Assembly (NCBI GenBank): GCA_032718475.1 | Contig: JAUCBJ010006915.1 | Location: 62,001-126,000, forward strand | Source: Nemertoderma westbladi | Taxonomy: Eukaryota; Animalia; Xenacoelomorpha | Reading direction: 5' to 3' | DNA: 64,000 bases | Shown: in pieces, positions 1 through 61,900 of the stretch | Layout: each line of letters opens with the position of its first letter | Position numbering within the stretch: position 1 is the stretch's first letter | Translations under genes and position numbers: made by a program | The notes under the pieces: model-generated | What the model saw: the letters and a program-made list of their open reading frames with translations, nothing else | Database searches by the model: none | Told to the model about the DNA's origin: nothing

Positions 1-1710
1 TCAAAATGTCCAGTCGGTAGCAGACGTATGGTATCTTCCATCATCTCCAGTGACCGTTTCTCATCAGTGGACATGGCTAGGTCATATCCACCGGGTTCCA
101 TTGCGTCCCTATCCAGCCATTCGACGGTTCTGGCTCCTGTCTCGAGGTCCTGGCGTATCAATTCCTTCTGCAATTCCTCCTCACTGTATTGGAAAATGTC
201 TAGGTCTCGATATTTAGCCACTTGACCCTCCACTATGTTGGTATAAGTCAAAACGTTACTCAAATAGGTAGTGTGGGCCGCTGAACCAGACCCACAGGTC
301 TGATAACAGTAGTCCTCGGGTTCACTATCTGTCCGGTCGTTATGAAGTGGTTCCGACAACCTAACATTATCGGGAATCAACTCCTCGTCCGACTCGCTAA
401 AGTCACTATAGTGGTCAATACAGGTTCTCCTAAACTCGTCTATGTCTGGTGGTTCTACTAACGGTGGTTGAGTTATAGGCTGTAATTCGTCGTATCTATC
501 CATTGGCTTGTCGTCACCTGTAAACTCATAAGACATGGGTACTCGTGTATACCAACCTAATATAGTCCTATGGGCATGTGGTCCATTGACATGCGGCTCA
601 GCTGGTCTCGTTTCCCATATTTGGTGTGTGATCAGCTGTTCTGCACCAATTAACATAGAAACATTCCTATAACCTACCTGATGTCTGGGTATTCTGAGCT
701 TGTCAAAATACTCCTGTGCTATGGGACTCATGTCTGTCTACTGAGTTAAATGTCACAGTGGTCCTGTCATCGTCAAAACTTACCATAGACTTACCGGTAA
801 CAGGTTTAGACTCTCTCATATTCTCCTCTGAGAAGTTTGATTTCATCTCTGCTACTGCGTCTGTGGCTATCATGTCATGAATATGCTGAAGTGTCAATAC
901 TTTACCTTGGCCCTCCAACTTATTCTTTAATTTGCGCCATTTCTGTCTGTAACGCATGTTTAGACGTCTTATTACGCCTTTCAAGACTTCGGCGTGATCA
1001 CCATGATAAGGTAGATTCACCGTCCTCAAGATGTCCAATGCGTTCGAAATAGCGTTCGCTAAGTTCAACAGCTCTAACGGAGTTGTAATCCTTCCGCCCT
1101 TACCCAAGTCTTCCACTATCGACTGTGCCATCTTGGTTTTATTCCCGTAGAGGTCGCTAAGCGTCTTCATTGCCAACTCAAATGCCCTTTCATTGCCGAC
1201 GAAGTTGTCAGCAATGGCTCTAGGTTCTCGATGGAGCATCTGAAGCAAATAGTTGAACTTCTCGTTGGGAGTAAAGGTGCTGTTGGTCAGCTGCTCGTCG
1301 ACATAGGTTTTGAATGTCCTCCAGTGCTTGTGGTTACCCATAAACTTCTGGGGTTGTTGCGTCGGCAGTCCTTGCCTAGCAGCAAACTTACCTATGTCCC
1401 TAAGGGTTGCGTCGTTCCGGGTTAACAAATGGTTTAGTTCTGCAGGGTTGTTAAGTCTGGTCCTTTCCCGGGGATTGAGACTTACCTGCTCCGCGTCCGT
1501 CCTTCTTTCCTTATAGTTTCGGGACTTCTGACGTCTCATGTCTTCCTCTTCATCACTCGATTCTGTGTCAGTCCTTAGCGCTCGCGATGGTTTGCGTGCC
1601 GAGGCCCTGACCCAGGCTTCTTGAATAAACTTTTCGGCTGAGTTTTCGAAATCGGGATTATGGATATTCGGGACAGGCGTCCTTACCTGAGGTCTATGTG
1701 GTATGGGCTG
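1..1710 (-). mobile_element. BEL/Pao gag-pol, copy A (continues past the left edge, internally deleted)
   Basis: The reverse complement is nearly identical to about 6847-9420. It has a DUF1759-like motif (KFMGNHKHWRTFKTY...EKFNYLLQML). At about 733 it jumps from the sequence matching ~7797 to that matching ~8687, a deletion of about 0.9 kb covering the zinc knuckles and protease. Confidence 0.9.
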
Positions 1711-1915
1711 CTTCCTTTAACCGTAGGTTGCTAAGCATGTCTGCTATAGGTTGGATGTGCGGCGATATAGCTTGCGCTAAACTAGCACTTAACTCATCCC
1801 TCGTAATAAATTCCTGGCTAGGGTTCTGTTGTATAGTCGGCTCTATCTGAGTAATCCGCTGTCTCTCATATGATCCCTCTTCCGGTTTAACCCGGAAGTT
1901 CTCCGTCGAACTGGG

Positions 1916-15802: not shown

Positions 15803-17026
15803 AGCAAAGCTATACAATAGAATTCTATTAAATCGCATCAGGGATCCCATTGAGAGACTGCTCCGTGGAAATCAGCATGGGTTCCGTAAAGGTCATGGGA
15901 CCATGGAGCCCATTTTGGCACTTAGAAGGATAATTGAAGAGTTATCAAAAAAGAAAGACAGGCATCTGGCTGTATCTTTGTTGACTTCTTCAAGGCCTTT
16001 GATTCAGTCTCTCGCTCACGTATGTTCAGCATACTTTCATTATATGGGATTCCTGATGAAATTATTGCAGCAATCAGATCAGTATACGATGGTTCGACAA
16101 CATTTGTGTCTACTGTTGACGGTGACACAGAACCATTTGAAGTGTTATGGGGCGTCCTCCAGGGAGACACACTTGCACCATTCTTGTTCATAATTGTTGT
16201 TGACTATGTTCTACGCATGTCCTTAGATCATCATAATGATGATGGGGTGATGATAACTCCATCTACTGGCTCCAGAAGTCGAGGAAATCCTGCCAAGTAC
16301 CTAACTGATCTAGACTTTGTTGATGACTTAGGAGTACTCTCAGAATCACTAGAGGGAGCCCAACGGCTCCTCAGTTCATTAGAACATGCTGCTTCTAGTG
16401 TTGGTCTTTTTATTAACTCCAGAAAGACCAAATTTTTGACAGTTAACTTTGAAAGCCCTCAGCAAGTCTCTGATCGGATGAGCATAAGCTCAAAAGATGG
16501 TATGCTTGAGCATGTGGATGACTTCTGTTACCTGGGATCATGGATCCGGAAGTCAGGTGAGGACATTCGAATACGTAAGGGAAATGCCTGGGCAGCCTTG
16601 AATAGGCTTTCCAGGATTTGGAAGTCACCGAGAATTAATCGGAAACTTAAGGTCGGATTATTTAGAGCAGCAGTAGTTCCAGTACTCCTCTATGGGAGTC
16701 CATGCTGGGCTCTAACTGCTGAATACACCAAATCTCTGGATGGCATATTCACAAGAATGCTACGCCGGGTTCATTGTGTCAAGTACAATGCACACATCTC
16801 CAACCAGACACTATATAACATTGGAGGTGTCCCATTGGTTCCCCCAAGCTTGACACTAGAACAAAATCGCCTCCGCTTTGCAGGGCATTGCTTTCGCCGT
16901 GAGGACCAGCCAGTGCATAATCTTGTACTTTGGCAGCCTCATGGAGTGAATAAGCATGGTGGACAGCCCATGGCTTTCTTGAGACGCATCTTAAAGGACA
17001 CCGGCCTTGAAGATGCGGATGATCTA
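15803..17026 (+). mobile_element. RTE-clade LINE fragment (RT domain), copy 1
   Basis: GVLQGDTLAPFLFIIVVD, DLDFVDD (degenerate FADD) and FCYLGS. Near-identical to 46204-47616 on the - strand. Frameshifted near 15975 and truncated at both ends. Confidence 0.92.
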
Positions 17027-17394
17027 GAAAGCAAGTTGCGAAGAATGGCGATGATAGGAGATGTGCAATTTCGCAAAAGACACTTTTTTAAACGCTTATA
17101 AAAAAAATGTAAAGGCAAAATCGAAAATTCCGGCTTCATGGTAACAATCACGGTGAGTTGAACTAGTTGTGTTTCAAATTTTAAGTAATATGATAAAGAT
17201 CTGTAGAAAAATTTGAGGGGGGGGGGGGTCCGTGTCATCAGAAAATGACATTATATTACGGGTCATGGTGTATATACAGTAGGCTATACAAATGTATAAA
17301 TTAATCAAAAGTTTAATGGTGAATTTACCCATGCTTATAAAGTTGAATATTTATTTCTTTGTATTTCCCTCCAGTTTAAATCTAACATACTTAA

Positions 17395-22830: not shown

Positions 22831-23800
22831 GGCATCGGCAGATAATGCGCGGGGCAAGTTAGGTGAACCGCGGCACCCGACGACGGAGAATAGTAGGGGG
22901 ATGATGAGTATCCCCAGGAGGGTCCAACCGGACAGAGTAGAGTCAGATGTTAGCGCCAAGAGTGGGCGAGCGACGAGACGTCGAGCCCAGTCAGAAGAGA
23001 GAAGAAGATTAGTAGAGTTTAACCGAGAGGTCGAAGAGAGAAGAAGATTAGTAGAGTTTACTGAGAGGTCGAAGAAAGAAGAAGATTAGTAGAGTTTAAC
23101 CGAGAGGTCGAAGAGAGAAGAAGTAAAGATAATAGAAGAGTCGTTGCTAGGAGCAACTGGAGAGCAGGGATGGATAGCGAGCCGTCGATAGTAGAGATGG
23201 AGTTAGGGAGTCAGTGGGGTCGAACTCTGGGAGATTGCCGTCGCCCCGGAGAAACGTACCGCACGCCAGGAGAGGGGTACAGGACGTACCGATACGAAGA
23301 CGATAATATAAGAGGAGATCGAAGAGAAACTTCCCGACGGGATATAGCTGCCGATCGAGAGTACAGTAGTCGAGGGGAGACTCGAGATTCGAGAGAATTA
23401 AACTTCGGTTCGGAAGGGCACATGCAGACTGCAGGACATACTGTAGGCCTTACTGCACATACTATTATAGGCCATGCTGGGAGAGATAGAGTAGGCGATA
23501 GGGTAGCGCGGATGACGGGATTAAACCCGGAAGTCGCGGAGTACATACCGGTAGGTAGGCAAGAAGTGGATAGGCCTATATCGGTACCGGCACAGCAGCA
23601 TGACTATAATATCCAGGGACATAACAAATATCCAGGGGAGAGGAGAGTTATTGCAGATAGATGTATGGGCCCCAATATATTAACATCAACCCCAGTACCA
23701 AATATAATACCGGTGGGGGGGGGGGGGGGGGGGACAGGGTGACATTCCCCCATTACAATATCAACAATACACTCAAACAGCAATAGAACATCGAACCCCC

Positions 23801-25660
23801 GTGGACGAGAACAGGTTGTGCGACACAGAAATATGGAGGGGGCCGTTACCCCCCATGATATATCCGACGCAACAGAACAGAACAACAGATAGGACGAACG
23901 GACCACACCCAACAGGAGAGTCTGTACAGCATCCATCGAACCCATTGGAAGCACAGGCGATGGGAATGGCTACATTAATCGATGCATTAAAGACCAGGAT
24001 CGAGTTACCACCAGTCGAGCCATTTAAATTCGACAGGAGTAGGCCGGAAGAATACCTGCAATTTCGGCGCATGTACAGCAACGAGATATTAAGTAAGAAC
24101 TTGATGCAGGCGGAGTGCCTAAAATATCTACAAGTGTATACAGGAGGCCCAGCATACGACATTGTGAGGCAGTACCAGGGCATCGAGGGCGGCTTCACGA
24201 CTGCATGGCGGGCACTAGACAGGGAATACGGACACCCAGCCAAGATCATCTGGCAAACCCTGAGAGGTATAACATCGGGTGGCCTACAGGACAACCCCGT
24301 TAGCATAAAGACCTTTGCGAACAAGGTCGAGAAGGCGTTAATCGTGTTGAAGACGCTAGCCACGCCATACGAACTCAACGCATCCAATAACATCACCACG
24401 ATAGCGCAGGCACTGCCGATCTGGCTGCGGAGCAAGTGGAGGAAGATCGCCTTCTCCACCCGGGAGAAGAAAGGTGCGGAGCCAGGGCTGGAGGAAATGT
24501 CAAACTTCCTCAACTATGAAGCCTAGTTGATTACAGACCCAGTCTATAGTGAGGATAGTTTGGGGAAGGCGCCAAAGATCGAATACAACAGGCCTAAACC
24601 CAAACACAATCCTGCAGATCCATTCCCGAGAGTGAGACAGTCGCTACCACACGCGGCCACACAGGGGGCTACAAGCCCACAGTTAGCTGGGAGTAGGGCC
24701 ACACCGTGGCAGGGACAGAAAGAAAATAACACTACAAATAAACCCAATCCCAACGTACCCAGTAGGTCGAATCTAGATAACCAAAACACTAAATCGGTAG
24801 ATATAAATCTACGCGCGATACGTGAAGGACTATACAGGAAACGCTATAATCCAGGATTCGAATGTCAATTACATCGGGACGGAACCCATAAGACCATGAG
24901 TTGTAAGCACTGGTAAGCATTGCCCAAAGAAGATCGTATAGCCTACACAGATGCAAATGGACTATGTCATCGATGTGTGGTAGAAGGACACAGATCCGGA
25001 GAGTGGAGAGAAACAGCAGTTAGAGAGTCCGAGACTGGAGGCCAAACAATGGCTACAAGCACGACATTGGCAAGAAAGAAGAGAAAAGTACTACTCAGGG
25101 TAGTACCAGTGAAGATATCAGGAGAGGGCGGTCAATCAGTAACGACATTAATGCTGGTCGACAGCGGAGCAGCCTTCACGCTGGTGGAGAACTGGGTGGC
25201 CGAAGAGATAGGGCTAAAGACGAGGCCGAATAGAATGGCGGTAACTACTGTCTCAAGTAAGAATGAGGTCCTGGAGATGAGGACGGGGTGGTGCAGGATA
25301 TCAGCGATTGAACCGGGATGCGACTATGGGGCGACCATCGACCCCATCCAGGTGATAGAATCGATAAATATCGACGCCAGGCGACCAACCAACATTGAGG
25401 TCGAACAATATAGATTCCTGGACGGTATCGATTTCTCAATACCAAAGGTGGACGTTAGGAAGGTGTCCATCATAGTAGGAATGGACTGCCCGACGGCCCA
25501 CGAGAGAATTAAGACGGTCTTCGGCGAAGACAGACAGCGGGATCCGAAGGCGAGACTCACGCCATTCGGATGGACACTTAGCGGTCCAGTTAAAACCAAG
25601 ATTCCATCCAGGGTGACGGAGACATCAGGGTGCATGTTACCAGGCACCGTAGACGTTTAG
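23801..25660 (+). pseudogene. BEL gag core and aspartic protease with in-frame stops
   Basis: ORFs 23801-24526, 24527-24916 and 24920-25660 share one frame. They contain remnant knuckles (CQLH..H..C, CHRCVVEGH), a DSG protease motif and TPFGWTLSGP. Confidence 0.85.
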
Positions 25661-37769: not shown

Positions 37770-38860
37770 AAATAATTGTAAGTTAATATTTTAGACGGTT
37801 GTTTGCGATGGAATTCTTGATTGAAGGTGGAAAGCTAAAGCCAAGGCTGTGTTGTAAGCGGGGATTGCCGGGCAAAGAAGCGCATGGCAGGTATCCGTGG
37901 CAGCATCGCCACAGAGACTGCAAATGCACGAACTGTCTGGTCTCCAACACCGCTCGGTAGAACAGAGACGATGGTGGAAACCGTTTGAGATGTATTGCGC
38001 TGCAACTCGGCGACGCTGACCCGCTAGGTTGGCCAACGATATCGCAGCAGTTGAGGGGTGGTCCACGGCAGCCAATATTTTGGTCGTGGAAGCGTACTTG
38101 CTTACGCCACTCCAGAGCTTCCAGTAAAATCCTCGTACCTTTACAACGTGCTGTAATTGGAGGAGTTGTTCATTGGAGGAGTTTCCAAAAGTCGAGCAAC
38201 CGTATGTTGCCGCCGGCAGTATAACTAGTGACCATAGTTTGGTAGCTGTTGCCATGGAGACTATATTTAAATTAACCAGGGAAGCTATTCGCATGCAAGA
38301 AGCTATACCGCGGGATTGGAGGTGCAAGTAGTGATTACTTGGCGTATTAGTGGTGGATAGTACTACCCCAAGGTAGTTAAATTTATTCACAAATGGTAGC
38401 TGGTGTCCATTAAATGTTAATTTATCATCTCGCGATAAATGCCCCCCGTTTCGGAATTTGACCACCTTTGTTTTAGATAGATTTACTGTCAGGTCATTGG
38501 CCTTACAGTAGTCCGCTAGGTTGTTTAGTGCCGCTTGTACCGTGTCGATTGAAGTTCCGTATATTACAAGGTCGTCAGCATAGAGCAACACACGTATTCC
38601 TATTATTATGATAGTAAGAGCTGCCGGGAGGTCCGCAATGAAAAGACTGAATAGGAGTGGTGACAATTTGTCGCCCTGTACGACGCCGACCATCTGCACT
38701 ATTGGGTCTAGAATGTAAGTGCCGATACATATTCGTAATAAATTTGTGGCAATTAGTGCCCATATTGCTGTGATAAACATTCGGCTGACGCCAAGTTGAC
38801 CGAGTTTCTTGCAAAGTATTTCTCTGTTGACCGAGTCAAATGCCTTGGTATAGACCTTGG
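37770..38860 (-). mobile_element. 5'-truncated non-LTR retrotransposon (RT C-terminal half with Cys/His tail)
   Basis: KAFDSVNR (~38830-38850), GVVQGDKLSPLLFSLF, LLYADDL, FNYLGV and a C-terminal CSLC...HALLC. Clade uncertain (RTE-X or CR1 group). Confidence 0.88.
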
Positions 38861-39364
38861 AGCTTTTACGGCCCTCGTTCTATTATCGTTCACTCGTGCC
38901 GTAACGCTAATAAGTGCTATTTTATAAAAAATGACATATAAATGAAATATAAGCATATAGTTATTATTATTGATCAAGATATATATATCAGATATATATA
39001 TCTGAGATATATATTTAAGATATATAATATCGTTGGAAACTAATAAATTATTTAGAATTAAATTAGTTTTCTTAGATACGTTAGCTTTTAATTTGAAGGT
39101 ACAGTAGTGTAGAAATCTTATAAATAACACATTCAAACATAAGGAATACATTAATTAAAGAACTATGTTTCACTAAGTACTTACTGCTCGTAATTAGTCA
39201 GCTGGCTGGAATTGTGAAATTGACAAAAAACTTAAAAGATGCGCTGCTTGATTTCATGAAGCTGTCATAAGTCAGCCGTTCTACGCACAGTAGCTTAACA
39301 CAAGCTTTATGGAAACAGAATCACATTAACTCACCAGTGTGACGATCTACCAGACTTTGACATT

Positions 39365-41947
39365 ATGCCAAGAGATGTGCCTCTTTTGCAACCAGGAGGC
39401 CCCCCAATCCCATATATGCAACAAAGAGAGCGAGAGCCATCATCAGCTCCCCTTATACAATCAGTAGAGCCTCCAGCTCCTTATATGCAACGAGGAGGGC
39501 TTCTAACTCCCCTTATGCAACCAACAGAGCCTCCAACTACCTATATACAACCAGCAGGGCTAACAACCCCATACATGCAACCAAGAGAGCGAGGGCCACC
39601 AGCTTCCCTTATACAACCAGGAGAGCCTCCAACTCCCCTCATGCAATCAGGATGGCTTCCAACTCCCCTTATACAACCAGCAGAGCATCCAACTACCTAT
39701 ATACAACCAGCAGAGCTACCAACCCCATATATGCAACCAAGAGAGCGAGGGCCACCAGCTTCCCTTATACAACCAGGAGAGCCTCCAACTCCCCTCATGC
39801 AATCAGGATGGCTTCCAACTCCCCTTATACAACCAGCAGAGCATCCAACTACCTATATACAACCAGCAGAGCTACCAACCCCATATATGCAACCAAGAGA
39901 GCGAGGGCCACCAGCTTCCCTTATACAACCAGGAGAGTCTCCAACTCCCCTCATGCAATCAGGATGGCTTCCAACTCCCCTTATACAACCAGCAGAGCAT
40001 CCAACTACCTATATACAACCAGCAGGGCTAACAACCCCATACATGCAACCAAGAGAGCGAGGGCCACCAGCAGACCTTATACAACCACGAGAGCCTCCAA
40101 CTCCCCTCATGCAATCAGGATGGCTTCCAACTCCCCTTATACAACCAGCAGAGCATCCAACTACCTATATACAACCAGCAGGGCTAACAACCCCATACAT
40201 GCAACCAAGAGAGCGAGGGCCACCAGCTTCCCTTATACAACCAGGAGAGCCTCCAACTCCCCTCATGCAATCAGGATGGCTTCCAACTCCCCTTATACAA
40301 CCAGCAGAGCATCCAACTACCTATATACAACCAGCAGAGCTACCAACCCCATATATGCAACCAAGTGAGCGAGAGCTACCAGGTCCCCTTATACAACTAG
40401 GAGCGCCTCCAGCTACCAATATGCAACCAGCAAGGTATCCAAATCCCCTAATGCAACCAGTCGGGCCCCCAACCCAATACATGCAACTAAGAGAGCGAGA
40501 GCCACCAGCTCCCGTTGTGCAACTGGGAGAGCGTCCAATTCCCTATATGCAACGAGGAGGGCTTCTAACTCCCCGAATGCAACCGGGAGTAGAACAGGGT
40601 CAACCCTTCTTGATGCCAATATACCGTAGCCCTATAAAACCGGGACTGCGTCAAGCCCCCACCCAAACACATACAAACGCTCTTATTACACAAACAGAAG
40701 GTCCGCCAAGGCAGTGGTGTCCACCACAGCGAGACATGTTGGAAGAGAACAAAACATACCATGGTCTGTGTGATTCTTTTAATGTTGCGGAACAATGTGG
40801 CTACATAAAACCGGATATCAGTAAGAAATTAGTATTTTTTTTACAGTCTAAAGTCCATATTGATGGATACAAGAAGATTCTGAAGGAGGGTGACGCTGTT
40901 ATATTTCAATGCGAAATTAAAAAAGATAGAAATGATAAAATTGCATATAGAGCAACATGGGTTAGTGTTCCAGGATGTAATTATTGCGGGTCAGATAGAT
41001 ATAAACTTCCAAACATAGAGGAGACCATAACTTATACCGGCCGTTGTCTATACTATAATTATGAAGATAAACATGGGTATATAGTTCCATTCGATAAAAA
41101 AAATAACATGGAACTTTGTCATTGCCACACAATATACTTTCGTGAATATAACATCCATGTTACTAAGAAACGCAGGCCTCGTTTCAATATTGACCACAAA
41201 AAGCTTCTATTCCAGTATAGTTATAAGGAAACATATGGCTATCGTTATGCCACATGTGTTACAATACAGGGTGATGATTCATGCGAGGTAGCTAAAAGTA
41301 TTAACCTTAACCAAGATGGAGAAAGCAAACGTTTGCAAACGGATAAGTATGATATGCTAGAGGATGGTAAAACATACAAAGGAGAAGTGCAATTAGTTTG
41401 GAAAGATAACAGTTATTGCTTTACTGTACCGATAATAAACGGATTGCCACTTTGCTGTTGTTATGTATTGTTTACGCTGCCATCGGACATCCATATTAAT
41501 GGACACCAAAATTATCTGAAAAATGATGACTTCGTTAGATTCCGGATCCACTCTTATTTACACACCAGACAAGAAGGAGCCTTAGTGGTTACCGTGGAGG
41601 GAGACTTTAAATGCAGGGCCGCACGGATGGTTAACAGGAACGCAACTTTTATTGAAGAAAACAAACCACACAATATCGAAGATGCCCATACCTTGCATGA
41701 GGAAAGAATATATATTGGTATATACAGTTATAAATTATTCAATCATGAAGCAGAATATTATGAATCTATAATTCCGATAATTGATGAGAAGGAACTCTGT
41801 GGATGTTACAGAATATTAGTTAGCCAAGAAATGATTGAAAAACTTAAGAATGAAATGAGAACGTTAGGAAGGAAAACCGTTCGATTTCGGTTCCGATTTG
41901 ACGAAATAAAAAAACAAAGGATAGCAACATGGGTGCGGGTAATTTAA
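39365..41947 (+). CDS. 860-aa protein: Pro/Gln-rich tandem repeat followed by four tandem cold-shock-like (LIN28-derived) domains
   Basis: Uninterrupted ORF. Domain 1 (GLCDSFNVA..GYI..VFFLQSKVHIDGY..LKEGDAVIF..VSVPGCNYCGSDR) aligns by eye with the LIN28 CSD. Three further ~85-aa repeats start TYTG, TYKG and IYIG. AATAAA at 42033. Confidence 0.85.
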   Translation: MPRDVPLLQPGGPPIPYMQQREREPSSAPLIQSVEPPAPYMQRGGLLTPLMQPTEPPTTYIQPAGLTTPYMQPRERGPPASLIQPGEPPTPLMQSGWLPTPLIQPAEHPTTYIQPAELPTPYMQPRERGPPASLIQPGEPPTPLMQSGWLPTPLIQPAEHPTTYIQPAELPTPYMQPRERGPPASLIQPGESPTPLMQSGWLPTPLIQPAEHPTTYIQPAGLTTPYMQPRERGPPADLIQPREPPTPLMQSGWLPTPLIQPAEHPTTYIQPAGLTTPYMQPRERGPPASLIQPGEPPTPLMQSGWLPTPLIQPAEHPTTYIQPAELPTPYMQPSERELPGPLIQLGAPPATNMQPARYPNPLMQPVGPPTQYMQLREREPPAPVVQLGERPIPYMQRGGLLTPRMQPGVEQGQPFLMPIYRSPIKPGLRQAPTQTHTNALITQTEGPPRQWCPPQRDMLEENKTYHGLCDSFNVAEQCGYIKPDISKKLVFFLQSKVHIDGYKKILKEGDAVIFQCEIKKDRNDKIAYRATWVSVPGCNYCGSDRYKLPNIEETITYTGRCLYYNYEDKHGYIVPFDKKNNMELCHCHTIYFREYNIHVTKKRRPRFNIDHKKLLFQYSYKETYGYRYATCVTIQGDDSCEVAKSINLNQDGESKRLQTDKYDMLEDGKTYKGEVQLVWKDNSYCFTVPIINGLPLCCCYVLFTLPSDIHINGHQNYLKNDDFVRFRIHSYLHTRQEGALVVTVEGDFKCRAARMVNRNATFIEENKPHNIEDAHTLHEERIYIGIYSYKLFNHEAEYYESIIPIIDEKELCGCYRILVSQEMIEKLKNEMRTLGRKTVRFRFRFDEIKKQRIATWVRVI
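39575..40354 (+). repeat. Five 156-bp (52-aa) coding tandem units built from 30/36-bp subunits
   Basis: atgcaaccaagagagcgagggcc recurs at 39575, 39731, 39887, 40043 and 40199. Confidence 0.95.
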
Positions 41948-42032
41948 ATTGAAAAGGACAGTCATGATAGTGCATATGAGTAATCTAAATTTTAATTTAG
42001 ATAAATTATTATTAAATACGATTTTGGCGACC

Positions 42033-42038
42033 AATAAA
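42033..42038 (+). promoter_or_regulatory. Candidate polyadenylation signal for the 860-aa gene
   Basis: AATAAA 86 bp after the stop codon, in an AT-rich background. Confidence 0.35.
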
Positions 42039-42284
42039 ATATTGTTACTAGTTAGTCTGTTACCAGTTAATGCCTCCATATCTTATTCTCATGAGTAGAC
42101 CTACTGAAGTAAGTAAGACAGTGAATAACAACTATTTGTTCAGTATATACAATTCAATGCTATATTTTACACAAGTTACTGAGCTCCCGTAAGCTGGTTG
42201 GTATAACGGGTATGTTTGTACTGGGAGGATATCAGATTAGCAAAATATTGTTGAATTGAGTCTGTTCTATTACCAGTTGTTATA

Positions 42285-43003
42285 TATGGGTTGCCGTTGA
42301 TGTAAAAAGATAAGAAAAAATATTGGAGAGAAAAATAAATATTTGTAAGAAAAAAAATATATTTGTGAGAAGAAAATTAATATTTGCGAGAAGAAAATTA
42401 ACAATTGTGAGAAAAAGTATAAATTGGTGAGAATAAATAAATATTGTTGATACAATAATATATTAGTGAGAAAAAATATCTATGTTGCTGAAATTTCTTT
42501 AAAATTATGTTGGCAAGAAACTATATGTATTGGTGGAAAACTTTGCGAAAATATATTTTGCACAGAAAATATATATTGGTGAACTTGGTCTGATGTTTTC
42601 ATGCATACAGTAGAGACATCAAAATTGATACCGGTACAAGCTAAATTTCAGTAGGCCTACGACAGTATAAGCAGTAGGACTACAGTACCAGTAACAGTAA
42701 TACAGTACGGTACGTTGTGCAAAATGAGCTAATGCCAAACGTTTCACGAACCAAGTTCACCAATATATATTGTTATAACCAAAATATCTTCTCATAAGTT
42801 CACCAATATAAATTTAACTGACCTAAATATTTTTTCATAAATTAGACCAATATATATTTGTCTCTTTCAAACCAATATATTTTTTTAAGATAGTATTTTT
42901 TCGTATATATATTTTTCTCTCCAACATGTATTTTTTCTCACTAATATAAATTTTCTCTGAATTATCTCTAAATTTTCTCTTTTTGCATTAACGGCGCCCC
43001 ATA
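42285..43003. mobile_element. Non-autonomous IS3EU-like element
   Basis: TATGGG...CCCATA imperfect TIRs and a 6-bp TSD GTTATA (42279-84, 43004-09). Confidence 0.75.
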
Positions 43004-43920
43004 GTTATAAGTCAATATAATTAATTATTACATGGGAAAAAAGTATAACTTTTTGTTCTCTATACTCGAGGAATTTTATTGACCAAGCGTCAGCGAGGTT
43101 AACGCAGTTTGGAATTTGAAATTTTATTACTTTTCCTAAAAATATATTGTCTTTCTAATAGTGAAAACGGTTTTTAAACATATTGAGAAGTTTAGGTTTC
43201 GAGTTATAGCACCATTGTTTAACCTTCTTTTGGCACTTTTTTGCGATGATTTTTGATTTACACGGTTTTTTGGTGTTCGCAATTAGATGAATTCATATAA
43301 ATGAGCTAGAAATTTCAAACTTGTTTTTAGCGGCGAGTGCCAAATTTTGGTGCTTGCACCAATTTTTGAAATATGTCAATTTTGTAAATTGATTCAGGTT
43401 ACAATGGCACGTTATTTTAACCAAAACAATAAACTAAACACAATAGAACGGGTACCAGTTATATCTTTGAGTGTTATTTGCATCCAATTTCCCCTGTAGA
43501 GGGATGAATTTTTATTGCGTCCAGTTCCCCCCCCCCCCCCCCCCCCCCATCTGAAATGGATGTACAGATGTACTGTCGAAATAGGTACGAACTAAAATAC
43601 TGACCCAGCTGAAACCACCTGAAACCAGCAGTAAAACACCTGTGAAAACCAATAATATTTAGTTTCTAGTGGAACTTAGATCTCGGCTGGGAACCAGGGG
43701 TGCTACCTTAGATCCTAGACCCTTAGATCCTGGGCTCTATCTAGTTATAAGACTTAGGATCTTAGACACGGTCTTGGATCCTTGGTTTGATATTACGGAT
43801 TCGACCTTAGATCCTAGATGCGAACTTAAATCCTGGGTGTAACCTAGTGGTGTGACTATAGATCCATGATGCGAATATGCTATATCTCTGTAACAAGAAG
43901 TAGCCTACAATTTTTAAATA

Positions 43921-44552
43921 CAGGGTGTTCCACAAAATTTGACACGTTTTTGTTTTTTAAAAACTTTGCGCAATATCAACCGAATTTCCTAGTTTTTGTG
44001 GCAATTTGAAGCCAAAAGATTAACTTAAACTTTGGTTTGGGTATGGAATATTGCAAGATGGCGCACCACCCCACCGGGGCTTATTGGAGAGTTTCTAAAC
44101 GAAAACTTTGGGGACGATGAATCGGATTACTTCGCTAATTGCTTCAAGGAGATGCGCAGCAGACAGGATCACGTCCAGCATATTGGAGGAGGACATATTG
44201 AAGTGTATTAGTAGTAAATTATTATAATTAAATAAATTAAATTAGTATGAAGTAGTAGTAAACTCATTATAAACTTACCCAATCTTAAACTATTTTAGCC
44301 CACTACCTATATCATATATGTTTCATTATTTCACTAATATGAGCCTTTATATTTACAGTAAAATTAAGTGGATAATCAAACTCTTGTTTTATATAGCAAC
44401 TAAGTTTCCATAGCAACTAAAACATGCCATACCCAAACCAAAGTTAAAGTTTATCTTTTGGCTTCCGATTGCCACCAAAACTAGAAAATTAGGTTAAGAT
44501 TGCGCAAAGTTATTAAAAAACAAAAACGTGTCAAATTTTGTGGAACACCCTG
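43921..44552 (+). mobile_element. Tc1/mariner deletion derivative (MITE)
   Basis: TA TSD and ~130-bp TIRs starting CAGGGTGTTCCACAAAATTTGACACG. An internal remnant encodes ...HIGGGHIE (~44180-44202), typical of a mariner-type transposase C-terminus. Confidence 0.92.
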
Positions 44553-44809
44553 TATATCAAAAATTCAACAATATATTAAGGTAACTGATGTAAACAACTA
44601 AAATTCCACTCACTGCTAGGAGGTTTAATAAACGATTTAATTTAAAAAGCGACGATTTTTAACATTACAAAATTGGAATTGCTTATTGATTTTAGGAGTA
44701 ATGTTAGGTATTTAAATTCGTTTTAATTTAAAAACAACAACAATTCATAATAGAATTATTTTTTGGGAACAAGGGTTTTTGAGGTAGTCATATCTGACTT
44801 TTGACAAGA

Positions 44810-45878
44810 GTATTGCCCACCCCTACCTTAGGGTTGCAGATAAAAGTAGCGACCACGCCTACCTTCGGGTAGCAGATAAGAGTAGCGCCCAGCCCTACCT
44901 TCGCGTTGCTGATAAGAGTAGCGCCCACCCCTACCGTCGGGTTGCTGATAGGAGTAGCGCCCACCCCTATCTTCGGGTTGCAGATAAGTGTAGCGCCCAC
45001 CCCTACCTTCAGGTAGTAGATAGGAGTAGCGCCCAACCCTACCCTCGGGTGGCAGATAGGAGTAGCGCCCACCCCTATCTTCGGGTTGCAGATAAGTGTA
45101 GCGCCCACCCCTACCATCAGGTAGCAGATAGGAGTAGAGCCCAACCCTACCCTCGGGTTGCAGATAGGAGTAGCGCCCACCCCTATCTTCGGGTTGTAGA
45201 TAAGTGTAGCGCCCACCCCTACCTTCAGGTAGCAGATAGGAGTAGCGCCCAACCCTACCCTCGGGTTGCAGATAGGAGTAGCGCCCACCCCAACCTTCGA
45301 GTAGCAGATAGGAGTAGCGCCCACCCCTACCTTTGGGTAGTAGATAGGAGTAGCGCCCAACCCTACCCTCGGGTGGCAGATAGGAGTAGCGCCCACCCCT
45401 ATCTTCGGGTTGCAGATAAGTGTAGCGCCCACCCCTACCATCAGGTAGCAGATAGGAGTAGAGCCCAAACCTACCCTCGGGTTGCAGATAGGAGTAGCGC
45501 CCACCCCATCTTCGGGTTGTAGATAAGTGTAGCGCCCACCCCTACCTTCAGGTAGCAGATAGGAGTAGCGCCCAACCCTACCCTCGGGTTGCAGATAGGA
45601 GTAGCGCCCAACCCTACCCTCGGGTGGCAGATAGGAGTAGCACCCACCCCTACCTTCGGGTTGCAGATAAGTGTAGCGCCCACCCCTACCTTCGGGTAGC
45701 AGATATGAGTAGCGCCCACCCCTACCCTCGGGTTGCAGATAGGAGTAGCGCCCACCCCTACCCTCGGGTTGCAGATAGGAGTAGCGCCCACCCCTACCCT
45801 CGGGTTGCAGATAGAAGTAGCGCCCACCCCTACCCTCGGGTTGCAGATAGGAGTAGCGCCCACCCCTACCTTTGGGTT
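44810..45878. repeat. 36-bp minisatellite, about 29 copies
   Basis: Unit gcagataggagtagcgcccacccctaccctcgggtt, head-to-tail with no spacers. Confidence 0.95.
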
Positions 45879-46158
45879 GTCTGTGGCTTTGGCCAACTGT
45901 TCTTGAATGAGGTGTTCTTATTTCCATGTGTGCTACATATGATGTTTGTGCAGCATAAGATGTGCGAAAAAAGTGACTGAAATCTGAATCAGCAGTCGAT
46001 CGGGCAGAAAGCTGAACAATATAGAATCACACCAGCTATTCGATAAAGGTTCGGCCACAATGTGTTATAGGGTATATACAAGATGAACGAACGTTAGAGT
46101 TTTGCACTTGGTCAATGAAGCCGTTTTGCGTGTTTCTATGGTGTTTATATATTTTGGA

Positions 46159-47690
46159 CTACTACTACTACTAGGATCGGCATGCTGCATTGCAGCTGCA
46201 TTATTAAGAATGCTGTGCCGGCTTGTCAACAAAATTGCACCGCCACAACTCCCTATCACCCATGACATTTGCTAGATCATCCGCATCTTCAAGGCCAGTG
46301 TCCTTTAAGATGCGTCTCAAGAAAGTCATGGGCTGTCCACCATGCTTATTCACTCCATGAGGCTGCCAAAGTACAAGATTATGCACTGGCTGGTCCTCAC
46401 GGCGAAAGCAATGTCCTGCAAAGCGGAGGCGATTTTGTTCTAGTGTCAAGCTTGGGGGAACCAATGAGACACCTCCAATGTTATATAGTGTCTGGTTGGA
46501 GATGTGTGCATTGTACTTGACACAATGAACCCGGCGTAGCATTCTTGTGAATGTGCCATCCAGAGATTTGGTGTCCTCAGCAGTTAGAGCACAGCATGGA
46601 CTCCCGTAGAGGAGTACTGGAACTACTGCTGCTCTAAATAATCGGACCTTAAGTTTCCGATTAATTCTCGGTGACTTCCAAATCCTGGAAAGCCTATTCA
46701 AGGCTGCCCATGCCTTTCCCTTACGTATTCGAAGGTCCTCACCTGACTTCCGGATCCATGATCCCAGGTAACAGAAGTCGTCCACAAGCTCAAGCATACC
46801 ATCCTTTGAGCTTATGCTCATCCGATCAGAGACTTGCTGAGGACTTTCAAAGTTAACTGTCAGAATTTTGGTCTTTCCGGAGTTAATAAAAAGACCAACA
46901 CTAGAAGCAGCATGTTCTAATGAGCTGAGGAGCCATTGGGCTCCCTCTAATGATTCTGAGAGTACTCCTAAGTCATCAGCAAAGTCTAGATCAGTTAGGT
47001 ACTTGGCAGGATTTCCTCGACTTCTGGAGCCAGTAGGTGGAGTTATCATCACCCCATCATCATTATGATGATCTAAGGACATGCGTAGAACATAGTCAAC
47101 CACAATAATGAACAAGAATGGTGCAAGTGTGTCTCCTTGGAGGACGCCCCATAACACTTCAAATGGTTCTGTGTCACCGTCAACAGTCGACACAAATGTT
47201 GTCGAACCATCGTATACTGATCTGATTGCAGCAATAATTTCATCAGGAATCCCATATAATGAAAGTATGCTGAACATACGTGAGCGAGAGACTGAATCAG
47301 AGGCCTTGAAGAAGTCAACAAAGATAACAGCCAGATGCCTGTCTTTCTTTTTTGATAATTCTTCAATTATCCTTCTAAGTGCCAAAATGGGCTCCATGGT
47401 CCCACGACCTTTACGGAACCCATTCTGATTTCCACGGAGCAGTCTCTCAATGGGATCCCTGATGCGATTTAATAGAATCCTATTGTATAGCTTTGCAGCA
47501 ATCGAGATCAATGAGATTCTCCGAAAAGAACCATAGAGTGTTAGGTTGCCCTTCTTGGGAACTGGCACCAACTTATTTGTTTTCATTTCTTGCGGGACTC
47601 TTGTTGTTCGGTACATGTCTACTATGGTGGGATAGATGAGCTGTAAACACTCAGGTATTTTAAAGACCTCAGGGGGAAAACCTCAGGGGA
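46159..47690 (-). mobile_element. 5'-truncated RTE LINE copy 2 with (TAG)n tail
   Basis: ORF 46204-47616 with PVPKKG, QNGFR, FVDFFKASDS, GVLQGD and DFADD. TAG-repeat tail at 46158-46173. Flanked by direct repeats 45798-46158 and 47691-48032. Confidence 0.93.
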
Positions 47691-48897
47691 CCTCGGGTTG
47701 CAGATAGGATTAGCGCCCACCCCTACCCTCGGGTTGCAGATAGGAGTAGCGCCCACCCCTACCTTTGGGTTGCCTGTGGCTTTGGCCAACTGTTCTTGAA
47801 TGAGGTGTTCTTATTTCCATGTGTGCTACATATGATGTTTGTGCAGCATAAGATGTGCGAAAAAAGTGACTGAAATCTGAATCAGCAGTCGATCGGGCAG
47901 AAAGCTGAACAATATAGAATCACACCAGACACAATGTGTTATAGGGTATATACAAGATGAACGAACGTTAGAGTTTTGCACTTGGTCAATGAAGCCGTTT
48001 TGCGTGTTTCTATGGTGTTTATATATTTTGGAAAAAAAACACACTTCCTTAATTTTCAAGCATAAGTCAATTTTCCCAATGCATTATACTTATATTAAAG
48101 GTACATCGAACGGAAAATTTAGAAAAATGTAGCCGCGTGCTTTTTGTAACTTCATTTAATCATATAGTGATTGTAAATGGAAAATACCACCCCCCCCCCC
48201 CACCCCTCAATTCGATTAGCCACATCCTGTGAACAGAATACAGTGAATGGAATATGAGTCAAACATAAGTGGTTTTAAATAGCGGCATGTTGAATATTAT
48301 ATGATAATGATAATACTATTGTGTATCTGTTAATTTAATTATTGCCTAAACCTAAATCTATAAATACAAAGACTAATTAATTATGTTGTGAACATGTGGA
48401 TGCTGTGTACAAATTCGCAATAAACTCAAAAAATAATATTTTATTTATTTGTATGGAATTAATTTCTCACTACCAAATCGCCAGGGCGACATATTTTACA
48501 ACTTTATATCGCAGTGCGAAATAAAAATCTCCAGACATTTTTTGAACTTAAATTAAGAGTTCAGACACACTGCTATGTATGCCTAGTATGTCACCGAGTC
48601 ATTCTAAATATAATCCCATGACGTCATTCGATTACATTCTACAACTAATTATTCACAATAAATTGAAGGGCTGAGCATAAAAAGGTCCTATGTGACATTT
48701 TCATAGAATCAGAGTTATACTCATGCAGAGGTCCTATGAGACCTAACTTAACTTACCAATAAGGTTCTGAGATCATATGAACAATACTGTGCCCATGTCA
48801 AGAATACCAGGATTTTACTTTTCGGTCGACTTTTTATTGGAATTTTATATATGAAGATTTTTTATTTTTTTTAATTTATCTTTATTAAGTGTTTTAT

Positions 48898-50754: not shown

Positions 50755-52290
50755 TTAACAATTTTCGGTTTTCATAACCAAGTTACTATTCGGTGTGTTT
50801 ATTACAATATTGTTATGGTGGTTAATAGAAACCGTTGGTAGAGCGGATTGTACCGGCGGACATTCGGTGATTGGTAGAGGTGTCTGCAAGGGTTGGAACC
50901 CAGATGGGAAGGGGCGAGAAACTGTGGTCGCATCGGCCTGCACAACCAACGGAAACGTCGGCATTATACCGGGTGGTTTATTGCTAATGGAAACAGCGTG
51001 AGAGAAACCGGGAATAGCCGTAGAGGGAACCGAAACGCTGGCGGCGAGGAACGCGGGTGGAACGCTGGTGGAGGGGAGGGAAACGCCGCCGGGGAGGAAA
51101 TTGGGAATACTAGTGGTGTTTGTACCGGGACCGACGGCGAAGGATTGGCTGGTAGTCGTCAAGGGAGACACCATGGTAGGGAAGCTGGAGGTGGCGACGG
51201 CGGCCTGGAGCCGGCGGGCGTGTTGCTTGGTTATGTGCTCCTGCAGCTTCGTCTCATTGTAGTACTGCAGCGGACACATGTGACACTTTAACATCGCAGG
51301 GTTGGTGTGGCGGCGTTCGTGGCGTTGGAGATGCCACTTTGAGGCGAACGCATTGCCACAGATGGTACAAGTAAAGGGTTTAATTCCGTCGTGGGTGACA
51401 CGTTGATGACGTACCAACTTATCCTTCCTCGTAAACCCCTTCTCGCAAATTGTACAGAAGAAATGCTTCTCTCCCTGTTCGGTTTTCATGTGGCGATCGA
51501 GATGGGCTTTCCTGGTGTAAGATTTGGGGCAATTGTGACACGGATGCTGTTTATTCTCCATGTCTTTATGCGTCGCCATGTGAAGGTCAAACGCGTCTTG
51601 ATCGTCGAAGTATTTACTGCAGTCCAGACACTGGAGATGCGGAGCGTGGCGTTTCTTGCTGTGGGAAACCAGCTGTCTGCGCAGACGGAAGGTCTCGGAA
51701 CATACGCCGCAGACGTGTTTGTTCTTGGAGGCATCAACCGGTTTTAGGAGTCGATCCTTAGCAGGGGGCACAGATACCGACTGGGTTTCCAGGGCAGGAG
51801 CCGGAAAGTTACCACTGGGAAGCACAGGAATATAAGGAGCTACCGGTACTCCTACCGCAGGCTGGGTGGCTAGAGGAGCCGTCATGGCGAAGGAATGGGA
51901 GGGAGAGAGGAGAGCAGCGGTAGGTTTAGGTTGTGGAATAATCATAGCATTGTAAAACTGCGCCAAATTGGGAGCGAATGATGGACGGTCGTATTGGGGC
52001 TGTACTTGAACGTAGGCATCGCCGGAAGTAACTGCAGAGGTTGACGCCATCATCTGGTTGCTATTGTTGCAGTTGGGGATGGAGGGATGAGTTTGCGGTC
52101 TGTGCTCTGGTAACTTTTCTACTCCTCCCAGTTTTGTGTGCTGCTCCAACATACAGGATGAACGCAACAAGCCGATATGGGAAGCAATGAACGTTGTCGT
52201 CGCGGTACTAGAAGGAACTCCTGACACAGAACTACGGTCCAGGGATGTCGTGAAGGTTTGCTGATTCATTTGGGACTGCGATCTATCCAT
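50755..52290 (-). CDS. C2H2 zinc-finger protein (six fingers, S/T/P-rich flanks)
   Basis: Intact 511-aa ORF with fingers CGVC..H..H, CLDC..HMATH, CHNC..HMKTE, CTIC..HQRVTH, CTIC..HERRH and CHMC..HITKQH, and linkers GEKHF and GIKPF. Confidence 0.9.
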   Translation of the reverse strand: MDRSQSQMNQQTFTTSLDRSSVSGVPSSTATTTFIASHIGLLRSSCMLEQHTKLGGVEKLPEHRPQTHPSIPNCNNSNQMMASTSAVTSGDAYVQVQPQYDRPSFAPNLAQFYNAMIIPQPKPTAALLSPSHSFAMTAPLATQPAVGVPVAPYIPVLPSGNFPAPALETQSVSVPPAKDRLLKPVDASKNKHVCGVCSETFRLRRQLVSHSKKRHAPHLQCLDCSKYFDDQDAFDLHMATHKDMENKQHPCHNCPKSYTRKAHLDRHMKTEQGEKHFFCTICEKGFTRKDKLVRHQRVTHDGIKPFTCTICGNAFASKWHLQRHERRHTNPAMLKCHMCPLQYYNETKLQEHITKQHARRLQAAVATSSFPTMVSPLTTTSQSFAVGPGTNTTSIPNFLPGGVSLPSTSVPPAFLAASVSVPSTAIPGFSHAVSISNKPPGIMPTFPLVVQADATTVSRPFPSGFQPLQTPLPITECPPVQSALPTVSINHHNNIVINTPNSNLVMKTENC

Positions 52291-53141
52291 TTCTTTAATA
52301 CAGTAATAATAGACTAGGCAAGCCTACTCCCTGACTCCTGTCTGGTTGTTATGGTATATATCCGCCTATTCAACTATCAGACTAGGCCTATTGCCGTTGA
52401 TACCGTTGTATTAGGCCTACTACTGTCTGACTGTCAGACTGTACTAATCTGCTAATAGGCCTAAACTAGGAGCGCAGTTCACCTCACACCTGCACACACC
52501 GTCGTCCTCCCTCAGGCGTTATCGATCGCCCACTCGAGAGGTTCGGGCAGACCGTGATGTGATAATTGTACAGTATGTCGATTTATCGGTGAATAAAGGC
52601 ATTCCAATAACAGAATAATCGCGATTTCGGTCAACACTGACGGGTGACAGACCGAACGTAATCAGGATCGAATGTAACATAGTTTTTACTAATCGAATGT
52701 AACCTCAATTATGTTACATTGGATCCTATAACTATGTTACATTCGATCTACAAATACATGAGAGTAAAAACCCAAGCGATCATTTTGTGAACATCCAATG
52801 ATATTGCCTGTTTTATAAATGCTTTAAGTTGTTATGGGATGTTCTGTTTGATTGGTTGTTATGTGATTTACTTGCTAATCTTGGCCAGTATTAAATACAC
52901 TAAATCAACAAGCACTGATCAATGTGTACAGATATACAGTAGGAGTCAATATGTTTCACAGGAGGCATGATGGAGGGGGGGGGGGGGGGGGGATTTTCGA
53001 AAACCTATCTTGGCAGCTTGGTGAATTAAAAGCACATCCCGGCGAATTAGCAATGATAATTATTAAGTGAGGGAAAGGAACAGGTTGCTGTGGCAGGACA
53101 ATGGATAGAATAATAATAATTTTTATTACGTACTATATTTA

Positions 53142-60510: not shown

Positions 60511-60922
60511 TTCTGCTAAGTAGGGCATGTACGCCGAACGCGTTCGGCGCACAATTTTTTCCAGAATTTGGAGCAGGCGCAGAAAATTGAGAGCGCAGCG
60601 CAGCGCCGCGCAGCGCCGCGCAGCGCGCAGGCGCAGAAAATGTAGAGCGCGGCGCGACAGGCGCAGAAAATTTATAGCACGGCTCAGACTTGCACTACAG
60701 CACTAAGTCAGTACCGGTAAGTAGACCTACCCCTGGCAGTCTGCCGACTACCGGTAACAGCTAACAGGCAGACATACCTACACGTTGATACCTACATGTA
60801 GCCTCTATGTAGGCTATACCTCTACGCAAAAACTTTATAGTACAGCCTGACAGTACCGGTACACAACCAACTGTATACTGCAGTACTGTTATTCTGATAT
60901 TGGTTTACCGAGACTCAAGAGA

Positions 60923-61900
60923 ATGGCTCGACGTCAATCTCTACGTCCAGTTGATATGTCGAAGTTATTTAACTGCGACTCCTGCGCGGCCTTATTTGTG
61001 GAGAAGAAAGCATTGGATGAACATCTACTTTCTTGTGGGACTGATCCATCTAGTAGCCCGTGCCCACACTGTAATAAGAAGGTTTCAAACTCGAACTGTT
61101 TGGCCTGCGACATATGCGGTTTATGGGTACATGGTAGCTGTCTGAAGTTATCTGCTTCCGAAATACAAGTGCTCGCAAAGTGCAAAAACTGCAGAATAGT
61201 TTGCAATAAATGTGATTTGAAAGGACCCATTTCCGCCGGCTCGCCACGCAACTCCCTATCTGATGAGTCACTAACCCGACTGGAAGCATCCATTACGTCT
61301 AACATAGCCGACCTCAGTTCCAAGATTAACGTACTGTGTGCGGACGCCGACGCTGATGGCTCTCGTGGAACTGACACTGGCTACACATCCGACGTTTGGA
61401 GAAAGGTTACTTCGAAATCACGATCATCTGTAACGAAACCTCTCCTGACACTGGATGATGTCAGCAAGGAAGCTGCAGAGCAAAATAAAAGATCAGCCAA
61501 CATTGTTATAAAGGGACTGGATCTGCCGGCCAGCTCGTCTGATGACGCTAGATCGGTCGAAGACTTTATGTCCAAGGAATTTAATGTAGATAATTCCGTG
61601 GACACGGTACTTTTCCGACGCGCAGGAAACGCGACGAACAGACAGCCTTCAATGATTATTGTTAAGTTAACCTCGGCTGAAAGAAAATCCGCTATATTAA
61701 AGGCTAAAAACAAACTGCGGCATTCTGATTCACATTCAAATGTTTACGTATCACCTGATTTGACCCGACTTCAGTCTGAACAGGCATTCCTTCGACGTAA
61801 ATCAAATCGCGATTCGAACAATGTTGGGCGAAGTTCAGGAGGCGAAACATCAAACCCGATTGCCACCCCCACTGAAAGTTCGGACTCGGAAAACCACTAA
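60923..61900 (+). CDS. CR1-type LINE ORF1 (zinc finger + PHD finger + RRM-like region)
   Basis: CDSC..H..C, a PHD finger (CPHC..CDIC..WVHGSC..CNKC), RSANIVIKGL and VYVSPDLT. Confidence 0.9.
   Translation: MARRQSLRPVDMSKLFNCDSCAALFVEKKALDEHLLSCGTDPSSSPCPHCNKKVSNSNCLACDICGLWVHGSCLKLSASEIQVLAKCKNCRIVCNKCDLKGPISAGSPRNSLSDESLTRLEASITSNIADLSSKINVLCADADADGSRGTDTGYTSDVWRKVTSKSRSSVTKPLLTLDDVSKEAAEQNKRSANIVIKGLDLPASSSDDARSVEDFMSKEFNVDNSVDTVLFRRAGNATNRQPSMIIVKLTSAERKSAILKAKNKLRHSDSHSNVYVSPDLTRLQSEQAFLRRKSNRDSNNVGRSSGGETSNPIATPTESSDSENH

Follow-up and report, generated by a model that had tools for sequence, protein, structure and literature searches.

What does an 860-codon gene encode when it lies amid degraded transposable elements and its C-terminal half repeats one domain four times? 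The question is raised by a locus in the xenacoelomorph Nemertoderma westbladi (NCBI GenBank assembly GCA_032718475.1, contig JAUCBJ010006915.1). The window, that is, the whole stretch of DNA analyzed, covers 64,000 nucleotides (positions 62,001 to 126,000 of the forward strand), and coordinates below are those of the window. The reading towards which we lean, with slightly more belief than doubt, is that the gene belongs to a lineage-specific, probably fast-evolving multicopy family in which four diverged cold-shock-type repeats stand behind a Pro/Gln repeat, and that its product would be a cytoplasmic RNA-binding scaffold. The open reading frame (ORF) and its repeats, the latter compared below with the cold-shock domain (CSD), are as follows.

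39365-41947, plus strand: a single ORF of 860 amino acids, one open frame from ATG to TAA.
40751-41008, plus strand: repeat 1 (R1), a CSD whose tail, C-x-x-C-G-S-x-R (40976-40999), resembles that of LIN28 (PF00313, E 4.6e-7; predicted local distance difference test score, pLDDT, about 90).
41027-41302, plus strand: repeat 2 (R2), a diverged CSD with an L-C-H-C-H loop at 41114-41128 (CSD hidden Markov model, HMM; structural model; alignments).
41369-41632, plus strand: repeat 3 (R3), a diverged CSD with an L-C-C-C loop at 41450-41461 (CSD HMM, structural model, z 9.8 to R1).
41705-41944, plus strand: repeat 4 (R4), the most diverged, with an L-C-G-C loop at 41795-41806 (likeness to the other repeats).

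The repeats start at residues 463, 555, 669, and 781, and each has Y-x-G and A-[TL]-x-V. Their likeness was judged against 2000 shuffles per pair. The pairs R1-R2 (z 8.4), R1-R3 (z 9.8), and R2-R3 (z 10.0) were equaled by 0/2000 shuffles each, R2-R4 (z 5.5) by 1/2000, and R1-R4 (z 3.9) and R3-R4 (z 3.6) by 9/2000 each. With all six pairs significant, the four repeats of about 85 residues that the original prediction had placed here, each with an xYxG start and an A(T/L)xV end, are borne out. Identity to R1 is 26 to 30%; it is 24 to 30% across all repeats and 24 to 25% among R2-R4 themselves.

Are all four repeats CSDs, as had been proposed? For R1 the identity is firm: it passes Pfam PF00313 (30 bits; cut-off 27), and its predicted model superimposes on CspA, YBX1, and LIN28 with Z 10-12 and a root-mean-square deviation (rmsd) of 1.6-2.6 Å. 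For R2 and R3 it is likely. No Pfam family matches R2-R4 at E<=0.1. An HMM of our own, built from 66 CSDs of the proteins P0001-P0052 without the window sequence, though R1 had been part of the query by which these were gathered, gives 32.3 bits for R1, 10.1 for R2 (0/1000 shuffles), 4.5 for R3 (1/1000), and 0.8 for R4 (49/1000). Compared with 17 CSD proteins, a profile of R2-R4 reaches a probability of 38% (E 3.3e-4) over 67 columns that span the whole domain. In a search of the PDB with a four-repeat profile, cold-shock proteins (CSPs), YBX, and LIN28B appear at E 0.3-2, ranked below Cag3; the latter, the top match at E 0.13, is taken as a chance hit.

The proposal also invited a check for four oligonucleotide-binding (OB) folds. 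AlphaFold2, guided by eight multi-CSD homologues aligned onto R1-R3, models R1 with pLDDT about 90, R2 mostly with 60-86, and R3 with about 47-70. The barrel of R1 is thereby recovered, and R2 and R3 come out, guided by the CSD rows, as beta domains of lower confidence; R4 yields no model. For the whole model, Foldseek ranks Unr's tandem CSDs highest (E 3.7e-9), and a viral fold library returns generic multi-OB proteins only. The assignment of R4, reached solely through its likeness to the other repeats, is weak. Without the glycine of the ribonucleoprotein (RNP) motif and without the tail, R4 is likely a pseudo-RNA-binding domain.

In R2-R4, strands 2 and 3 are separated by an inserted loop that carries an invariant L-C-x-C; R1 is without this loop and has a C-x-x-C in its tail. 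The loop would bind metal. Neither this loop nor the N-terminal tandem array described below formed part of the first description of the locus. In CSDs, exposed W, F, and H residues of RNP1 and RNP2 contact nucleic acid (accessible text of PMC7825780). At the corresponding stacking positions, R1 of this copy has S, C, Y, F, and L (2/5 kept), and R2 has Y, H, Y, Y, and R (four of five kept).

From which CSD protein do the repeats descend? Descent from LIN28 is probable. A motif scan of metagenomes gave 114 loci and, from these, 110 CSD segments, the bacterial rows being fetched by a LIN28-derived motif. (At 3-765 of L040, three bacterial-type cold-shock genes, almost identical to each other, follow in tandem inside 0.8 kb.) Motifs were compared over a pool of 176 CSD rows: 7 LIN28 rows, all invertebrate-type (six with a CCHC knuckle, one cut short; two identical), and 169 others. 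The motif G.C..[FWY]NV occurs in 6/7 LIN28 rows and 0/169 others, C.?GS.R likewise in 6/7 and 0/169, and A-T-x-V in 7/7 and 13/169. Hence, two of the LIN28 marks that the original prediction had recognized in R1, G-x-C..F-N-V and the C-G-S-x-R tail, are confined to LIN28 in this pool, and two others do not hold outside vertebrates: QSK and LKEG are each found in 0/7 invertebrate LIN28 rows, and LKEG is present in 17/100 bacterial-type rows. Profiles made from six sequences score R1 with 30.2 bits for LIN28 and at most 15.7 bits for YBX (15 draws). In a 30-row tree, from which 12/42 rows including the long branch P0001b were left out, R1 groups with LIN28 at support 67.

A less likely but serious possibility concerns ancestry only, apart from function: R1 could go back to the horizontal transfer of a cold-shock gene from bacteria or protists, or derive from Unr/CSDE1 or YBX. 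Among PDB sequences, CspA (21.4 bits) stands above LIN28A (19.7) and LIN28B (15.5) as the best match of R1, and the best two of the 176 pairwise scores belong to bacterial-type rows. Moreover, six-sequence profiles from other eukaryotes (mean 26.1 bits) and from bacterial-type rows (mean 28.2; 60 draws each) both reach 30.8 bits at the 90th percentile, near the 30.2 of LIN28. The scores of the bacterial rows were, however, raised by the LIN28-derived motif used to fetch them, and the tail of R1 past strand 5, ending in C-G-S-x-R, is present in none of the 100 bacterial-type rows. As to YBX and Unr, no chain of either appears at E<=10 in the PDB sequence search with R1; R1 is without the YBX loop insertion, and the YBX profiles do not exceed the value given above. 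Eukaryote-type proteins with three CSDs do exist (P0001, P0003-P0006), the gene is intronless, and the Atlas features of the protein are nearest to CSD/CSDE1 clusters that carry PF23456 (0.90-0.91, a weak lead), but PF23456 itself, the CSDE1-type domain, goes unmatched in the protein at E<=0.1, as does SUZ-C. The trees contained LIN28, YBX, and bacterial CSDs, and no Unr sequence. In the 42-row tree, the branch leading to R1 is very long (5.3), and its neighbor is a second long row; with the 30 rows, approximately unbiased (AU) tests reject neither the YBX placement (p 0.35) nor the bacterial CSP placement (p 0.49). The folds cannot decide either, because Lin28A shares first place in one comparison with both Unr CSD1 and CRHSP-24, and another puts CspA on top. 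LIN28 is thus the likeliest animal ancestor by profile scores and motifs, in agreement with the LIN28 offshoot first proposed, and the phylogenetic check gives a LIN28 grouping that does not reject the competing placements.

The gene itself is, on sequence grounds, not a LIN28, because no zinc knuckle occurs in it or after it. No CCHC motif was found in the ORF or on the plus strand across 22 kb downstream; the only two in the window, at 8023 (plus strand) and 30447 (minus strand), are both far from the gene. The absence of knuckles claimed at the outset is hereby confirmed for the ORF and the plus strand downstream of it. A donor-like GTAATT at 41939-41944, directly before the stop codon, leaves splicing to a far exon formally possible; it sits where R4 is without the tail present in R1-R3. 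The idea that the knuckles vanished because the lineage lost let-7 was dropped, given conflicting reports on acoels: no let-7 in the accessible part of an older paper (PMC3384580), and a divergent let-7 together with a lin28b in an acoel in that of a 2026 preprint (10.1101/2024.12.01.626237).

Is the frame that of a real gene, and how did it arise? In its nonrepetitive half, 430 codons are free of stops, for which the chance probability at the local base make-up is about 3e-15; chance openness is therefore ruled out for this half. The two alternative frames there hold 21 and 53 stops. The intact 860-residue ORF amid degraded elements is thus as first described, the surroundings consisting of Pao/BEL and long interspersed nuclear element (LINE) fragments. 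By hydropathy, the protein has no signal peptide and no clear membrane segment. Two further features bear on its origin.

39040-39364 (limits approximate), plus strand: upstream flank common to the sister versions described below, likely promoter or 5′ untranslated region (contigs of the DNA runs X1, X3, and X5).
42011-42038, plus strand: candidate polyadenylation signals ATTAAA (42011) and AATAAA (42033), consensus matches only, in AT-rich DNA.

Retroposition had been raised as a possible route. The intronless frame (one open frame, from DNA only) is the sole point for it. No genomic poly(A) run follows the stop codon or the AATAAA at 42033, and the upstream flank is copied along with the ORF, so that retroposition is unsupported. 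Old retrogenes lose their poly(A) tail. The window contains no second copy of the gene and no Rfam match.

The repeats are preceded by a region of a quite different composition.

39404-40584, plus strand: Pro/Gln/Leu/Thr-rich low-complexity half, a tandem array of 6.8 units of 156 bp (52 amino acids) with 93% match.

The 52-residue unit is itself composed of [MI]Q sub-repeats of 10-12 residues. The N-terminal half contains 24% Pro, 10.5% Gln, and 20 S/T-P sites. It differs in length, in frame, between the sister versions; all 8/8 joints listed here keep the frame, as is partly expected since the unit is a multiple of three.

A single offshoot had been envisaged; the public DNA runs show several diverged versions instead, probably a multicopy family. 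Six runs are listed, four of which, all DNA, contain the stretch; the variants considered below are those listed, namely 40 of 57 R1 variant rows and, on 3.5 kb, 40 of 452 variant rows and 12 of 106 indel rows. On 38800-42300, there are 344 contigs in X1 and 329 in X3, of which 116 and 119, respectively, are less than 90% alike. At least five different X1 contigs cover 40737-40787, with 5-18 differences each. The likeness of the sister versions is about 80-99%, includes the upstream flank, and ends about 20-130 bases past the stop codon. We speak of at least five versions, likely at several loci, because depth does not translate into copy number and the samples may have been pooled. That the versions are instead alleles of one highly diverse locus in pooled animals would agree with the single copy in the window, and yet this seems very improbable to us: the versions differ by up to 17-19% plus large in-frame deletions, X1 contig depths gather around one and two times a value of about 24, and most variants are found again in a second sample from another study (30/40 R1 variants listed are present in both S1 and S2, hand count).

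In run X5, which carries the same species label and comes from another study, the regions 40721-40795 and 40866-41030 are covered by only two contigs (818 and 1163 bases), neither 95% alike to the window; X1-X3 have 19-29 short contigs there. One of the two is a version with K-Y-F at 470-472 that is present in X1 too. This hints, weakly, that the sample has fewer copies. X5 covered no part of the ORF in one mapping and gave two contigs in another; gaps in coverage thus carry no weight.

Do the copies still do anything? It is quite improbable, though not to the same degree as the allelic reading, that they are passengers, i.e., copies of a formerly functional gene that segmental duplication or a nonautonomous mobile element has multiplied and that now decay neutrally. 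The R1 variants listed are spread evenly over the codon positions (13, 14, and 13), transposon debris surrounds the gene, and a foldback-like element lies beside it. In one version, to which both frame-breaking events (net -22 and +1) apparently belong, the gene is likely dead for that reason. Against neutral decay stand the intact 860-codon frame and the indels: among those listed, the frame survives 4/6 events in the CSD half, and 0/8 rows in the flanks are multiples of three (0/6 in the upstream flank at 39040-39364), a contrast with p 0.015, or 0.03 when six flank events are counted. The unit is flanked neither by a transposase nor by inverted ends. The 40 R1 substitutions listed, each classed alone, comprise 30 nonsynonymous and 10 synonymous changes and no stops, the absence of stops having by itself p 0.08-0.13.

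The distribution of these substitutions is more telling. In R1 codons 465-495, eight positions of the RNA face were compared with eight of the core, a split that follows the presumed CspB numbering and the binding of nucleic acid by exposed W, F, and H residues noted above. Among the variants listed, 5/8 face positions vary (470, 471, 478, 491, and 493; 7/8 with loose ends) and 0/8 core positions (G467, C469, F472, N473, G479, I481, V490, and F492); p is 0.026 for the rows listed and 0.0014 with loose ends. The core residues are unchanged despite synonymous changes at G467, G479, and S495, which again argues against passengers. Compared by eye, sister versions have R at 468, N/K at 470, Y at 471, H/Y at 478, F at 493, and, in one version, F at 480. 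Their motifs K-Y-F, H-G-Y or Y-G-F, and F are nearer to canonical CSDs than this copy is; the D-S, C, and L of R1 would on that account be recent changes of this copy. Hence, the altered base-stacking residues (KW to DS, GFGF to QCGY, and VH to FL) that the original prediction took as a trait of the gene are limited to this copy, several sisters retaining aromatics.

Diversifying specificity and loss of binding would each account, equally well, for a face that varies on a core that does not. Loss of binding would make the protein a pure pseudo-RNA-binding scaffold, in which all four barrels have abandoned RNA, the face drifts, and the Cys loops and the Pro/Gln repeat serve protein contacts or structure. 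Three stacking positions of R1 hold S, C, and L, the repeats are barely basic, and the ratio of nonsynonymous to synonymous polymorphism (pN/pS) is near 1; Unr, moreover, has nonbinding CSDs with an extra loop, and 25 predicted proteins are described as having such CSDs without any other domain (accessible text of PMC7383231). We regard this as unlikely, given that aromatic residues or His persist in several versions (K-Y-F, H-G-Y, Y-G-F, and F) and in R2 (Y, H, Y, and Y), and that free drift at 24-30% identity should leave fewer stacking residues. The same persistence is the basis for preferring binding over its loss. The opposite extreme is that a zinc-clasped, four-barrel array of LIN28 CSDs has been amplified with its base-gripping residues under diversifying selection, each copy reading different RNAs in germ granules. 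The targets may then include the genome's own transposon and retrozyme RNAs, an RNA-level counterpart of KRAB zinc-finger arrays. As much doubt attaches to this version as to the allelic one.

Several observations weigh against the RNA-binding scaffold and its ingredients. R4 is not significant against the CSD profile, and the R2-R4 profile finds no CSD at E<=10 in the PDB. The guided structural model is partly circular, the homologues aligned on R1-R3 being CSDs themselves; without them, pLDDT is 30. The repeats carry a low net charge, between 0 and +3, and RGG boxes are absent from the N-terminal half. A crude pN/pS among versions is 0.8-0.9, near neutral, as the passenger reading would also have it. 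The face/core split depends on the presumed numbering, the core is invariant among the rows listed, and the substitution data cover R1 alone. Contig depth is not copy number, and a run may combine several individuals. As to ancestry, neither trees nor profiles separate LIN28 firmly from its competitors, and the Atlas clusters point to CSD/CSDE1 and not to LIN28; a further motif, [VI].F.C (4/7 LIN28 rows and 0/169 others), was picked after the data had been inspected.

With these points counted, we retain the multicopy family of RNA-binding scaffolds and suggest the following course. A LIN28-type CSD would have been duplicated in tandem long ago and the knuckles dropped. After the first duplication, the ancestor of R2-R4 would have acquired, between its second and third strands, the L-C-x-C loop, which would stiffen the array by binding metal or locking adjacent barrels. 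The whole gene together with its upstream flank would have been amplified later, at least one copy now looking frameshifted. In the protein, single-stranded RNA would stack against the aromatic face of R1 and R2, and R3 and R4 would mainly space and orient R1-R2, like the noncanonical CSDs of Unr. The Pro/Gln half, presumably disordered, would drive the assembly of RNA granules, tunable through S/T-P phosphorylation. Copies that retain the barrel and vary the RNA-gripping face would differ in target or affinity, and R1 of this copy would be among the weakest RNA grippers of the family.

The surroundings of the gene are rich in mobile elements. Three broken pieces of Pao/BEL retrotransposons (703-3652, minus strand; 7159-12637, plus strand; 23065-25660, plus strand) carry DUF1759, Peptidase_A17, and integrase. 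Two foldback-like elements (42312-42956 and 43911-44562), marked by AT-rich sub-repeated inverted arms and by 142-base arms that are 90% complementary, lie just downstream of the gene. They are followed by 29.8 copies of a 36-bp unit (44808-45879) with long stretches open on both strands and a 12-residue unit on the minus strand; a LINE reverse transcriptase (46204-47682, minus strand) adjoins this array, 2.3 more units of which lie beyond it at 47691-47773, and a close copy of the reverse transcriptase is found at 15938-17101 (plus strand). A frame of 522 codons at 50755-52323 (minus strand), with a C2H2 zinc-finger cluster between Pro/Ser/Thr-rich regions, is likely an intact single-exon host gene. 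An open frame at 60851-61900 (plus strand) has a weak PHD/C1 finger, which we take to be typical of a LINE ORF1.

How does the gene compare with known systems? Animal CSD proteins (LIN28, YBX, and Unr) are among the most conserved RNA-binding proteins. Among 1.84 billion representatives there were two matches, of which P0001 (E 1.9e-4) is the only real one; P0002, an FG-GAP repeat protein, was rejected as spurious. No relative was found among 1923 candidates of 222-709 amino acids, none for R1 among 66 longer candidates, and none in metagenome or viral contigs, and the exact sequences are absent from the sequence collection; these collections sample animal genes thinly, so that the blanks say little on close relatives. 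Listings from literature searches gave no published description of this architecture, in keeping with the initial impression of an unrecognized one. The 1,038 predicted noncanonical-CSD proteins behind Fig. 1D of PMC7383231 may include similar architectures.

R1 is 36% identical over 83 amino acids to L015, one of the invertebrate LIN28 sequences (L015, L025, L036, L048, and L111), with which it has G-x-C..F-N-V, F-x-C, A-T-x-V, and C-(x)-G-S-x-R in common, and its model matches mouse Lin28A with Z 10.6 and rmsd 1.8 Å across 71 residues. LIN28, however, has one CSD and two CCHC knuckles, the knuckles being the part that binds pre-let-7 and recruits TUT4 (accessible text of PMC7825780), whereas the present protein has four CSD-like repeats and none, in addition to a Pro/Gln half of 450 amino acids, several copies, and altered stacking residues. 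Y-box proteins (YBX1-3; P0042-P0052) likewise join a CSD to a long low-complexity region, but theirs is a single CSD with a loop insertion and a basic/acidic tail; R1 is without the insertion and the present protein without such a tail. P0001 and P0003-P0006 combine three tandem CSDs with a Gln/Ala/Pro/Tyr-rich region. Their CSDs are canonical (K-W-F, G-[FY]-G-F, and V-H-Q), their low complexity is C-terminal, and they have no Cys loop, so that their likeness is that of any CSD and theirs a separate tandem-CSD architecture.

Unr/CSDE1 is closer in layout, with tandem CSDs per chain, some of which are without RNA-binding residues and have an extra loop (accessible text of PMC7383231). Unr has nine CSDs and the extra loop between strands 1 and 2; the present protein has four and the L-C-x-C loop between strands 2 and 3. 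Unr is a conserved single-copy gene. The amplification recalls DAZ, in which, in the accessible text of PMC2322974, the RNA recognition motif (RRM) was multiplied, a tandem repeat of variable length was gained, and copy number varies. In relation to DAZL/BOULE, DAZ too is an offshoot, confined to one lineage, from a conserved gene for RNA binding, with a multiplied domain, a variable repeat, and copies. The present gene differs from DAZ in having a CSD and not an RRM, a much greater divergence among its domains, and no introns. In the best reading, the family would be a lineage-specific, DAZ-like amplification of Unr-like tandem-CSD RNA-granule proteins.

Whether nonbinding CSDs derive from binding ones is a question left by Hollmann et al. 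in the accessible text of PMC7383231, and the present chain, which probably began from a LIN28-type CSD and whose repeats range from near-canonical to degenerate, bears on it. A fixed barrel with a face that changes from copy to copy would offer a natural series on how a weakly specific CSD gains, alters, or loses specificity, and the Cys loop, if it binds zinc, would be a CSD add-on of which our searches found no description. Degenerate tandem CSDs in Unr, CSDs with low-complexity tails of the P0001 type, and amplified offshoots like DAZ are each already known separately. What appears new here is that a likely LIN28-type start and the absence of knuckles go together with the L-C-x-C loop, multiple copies, and an RNA face that varies.

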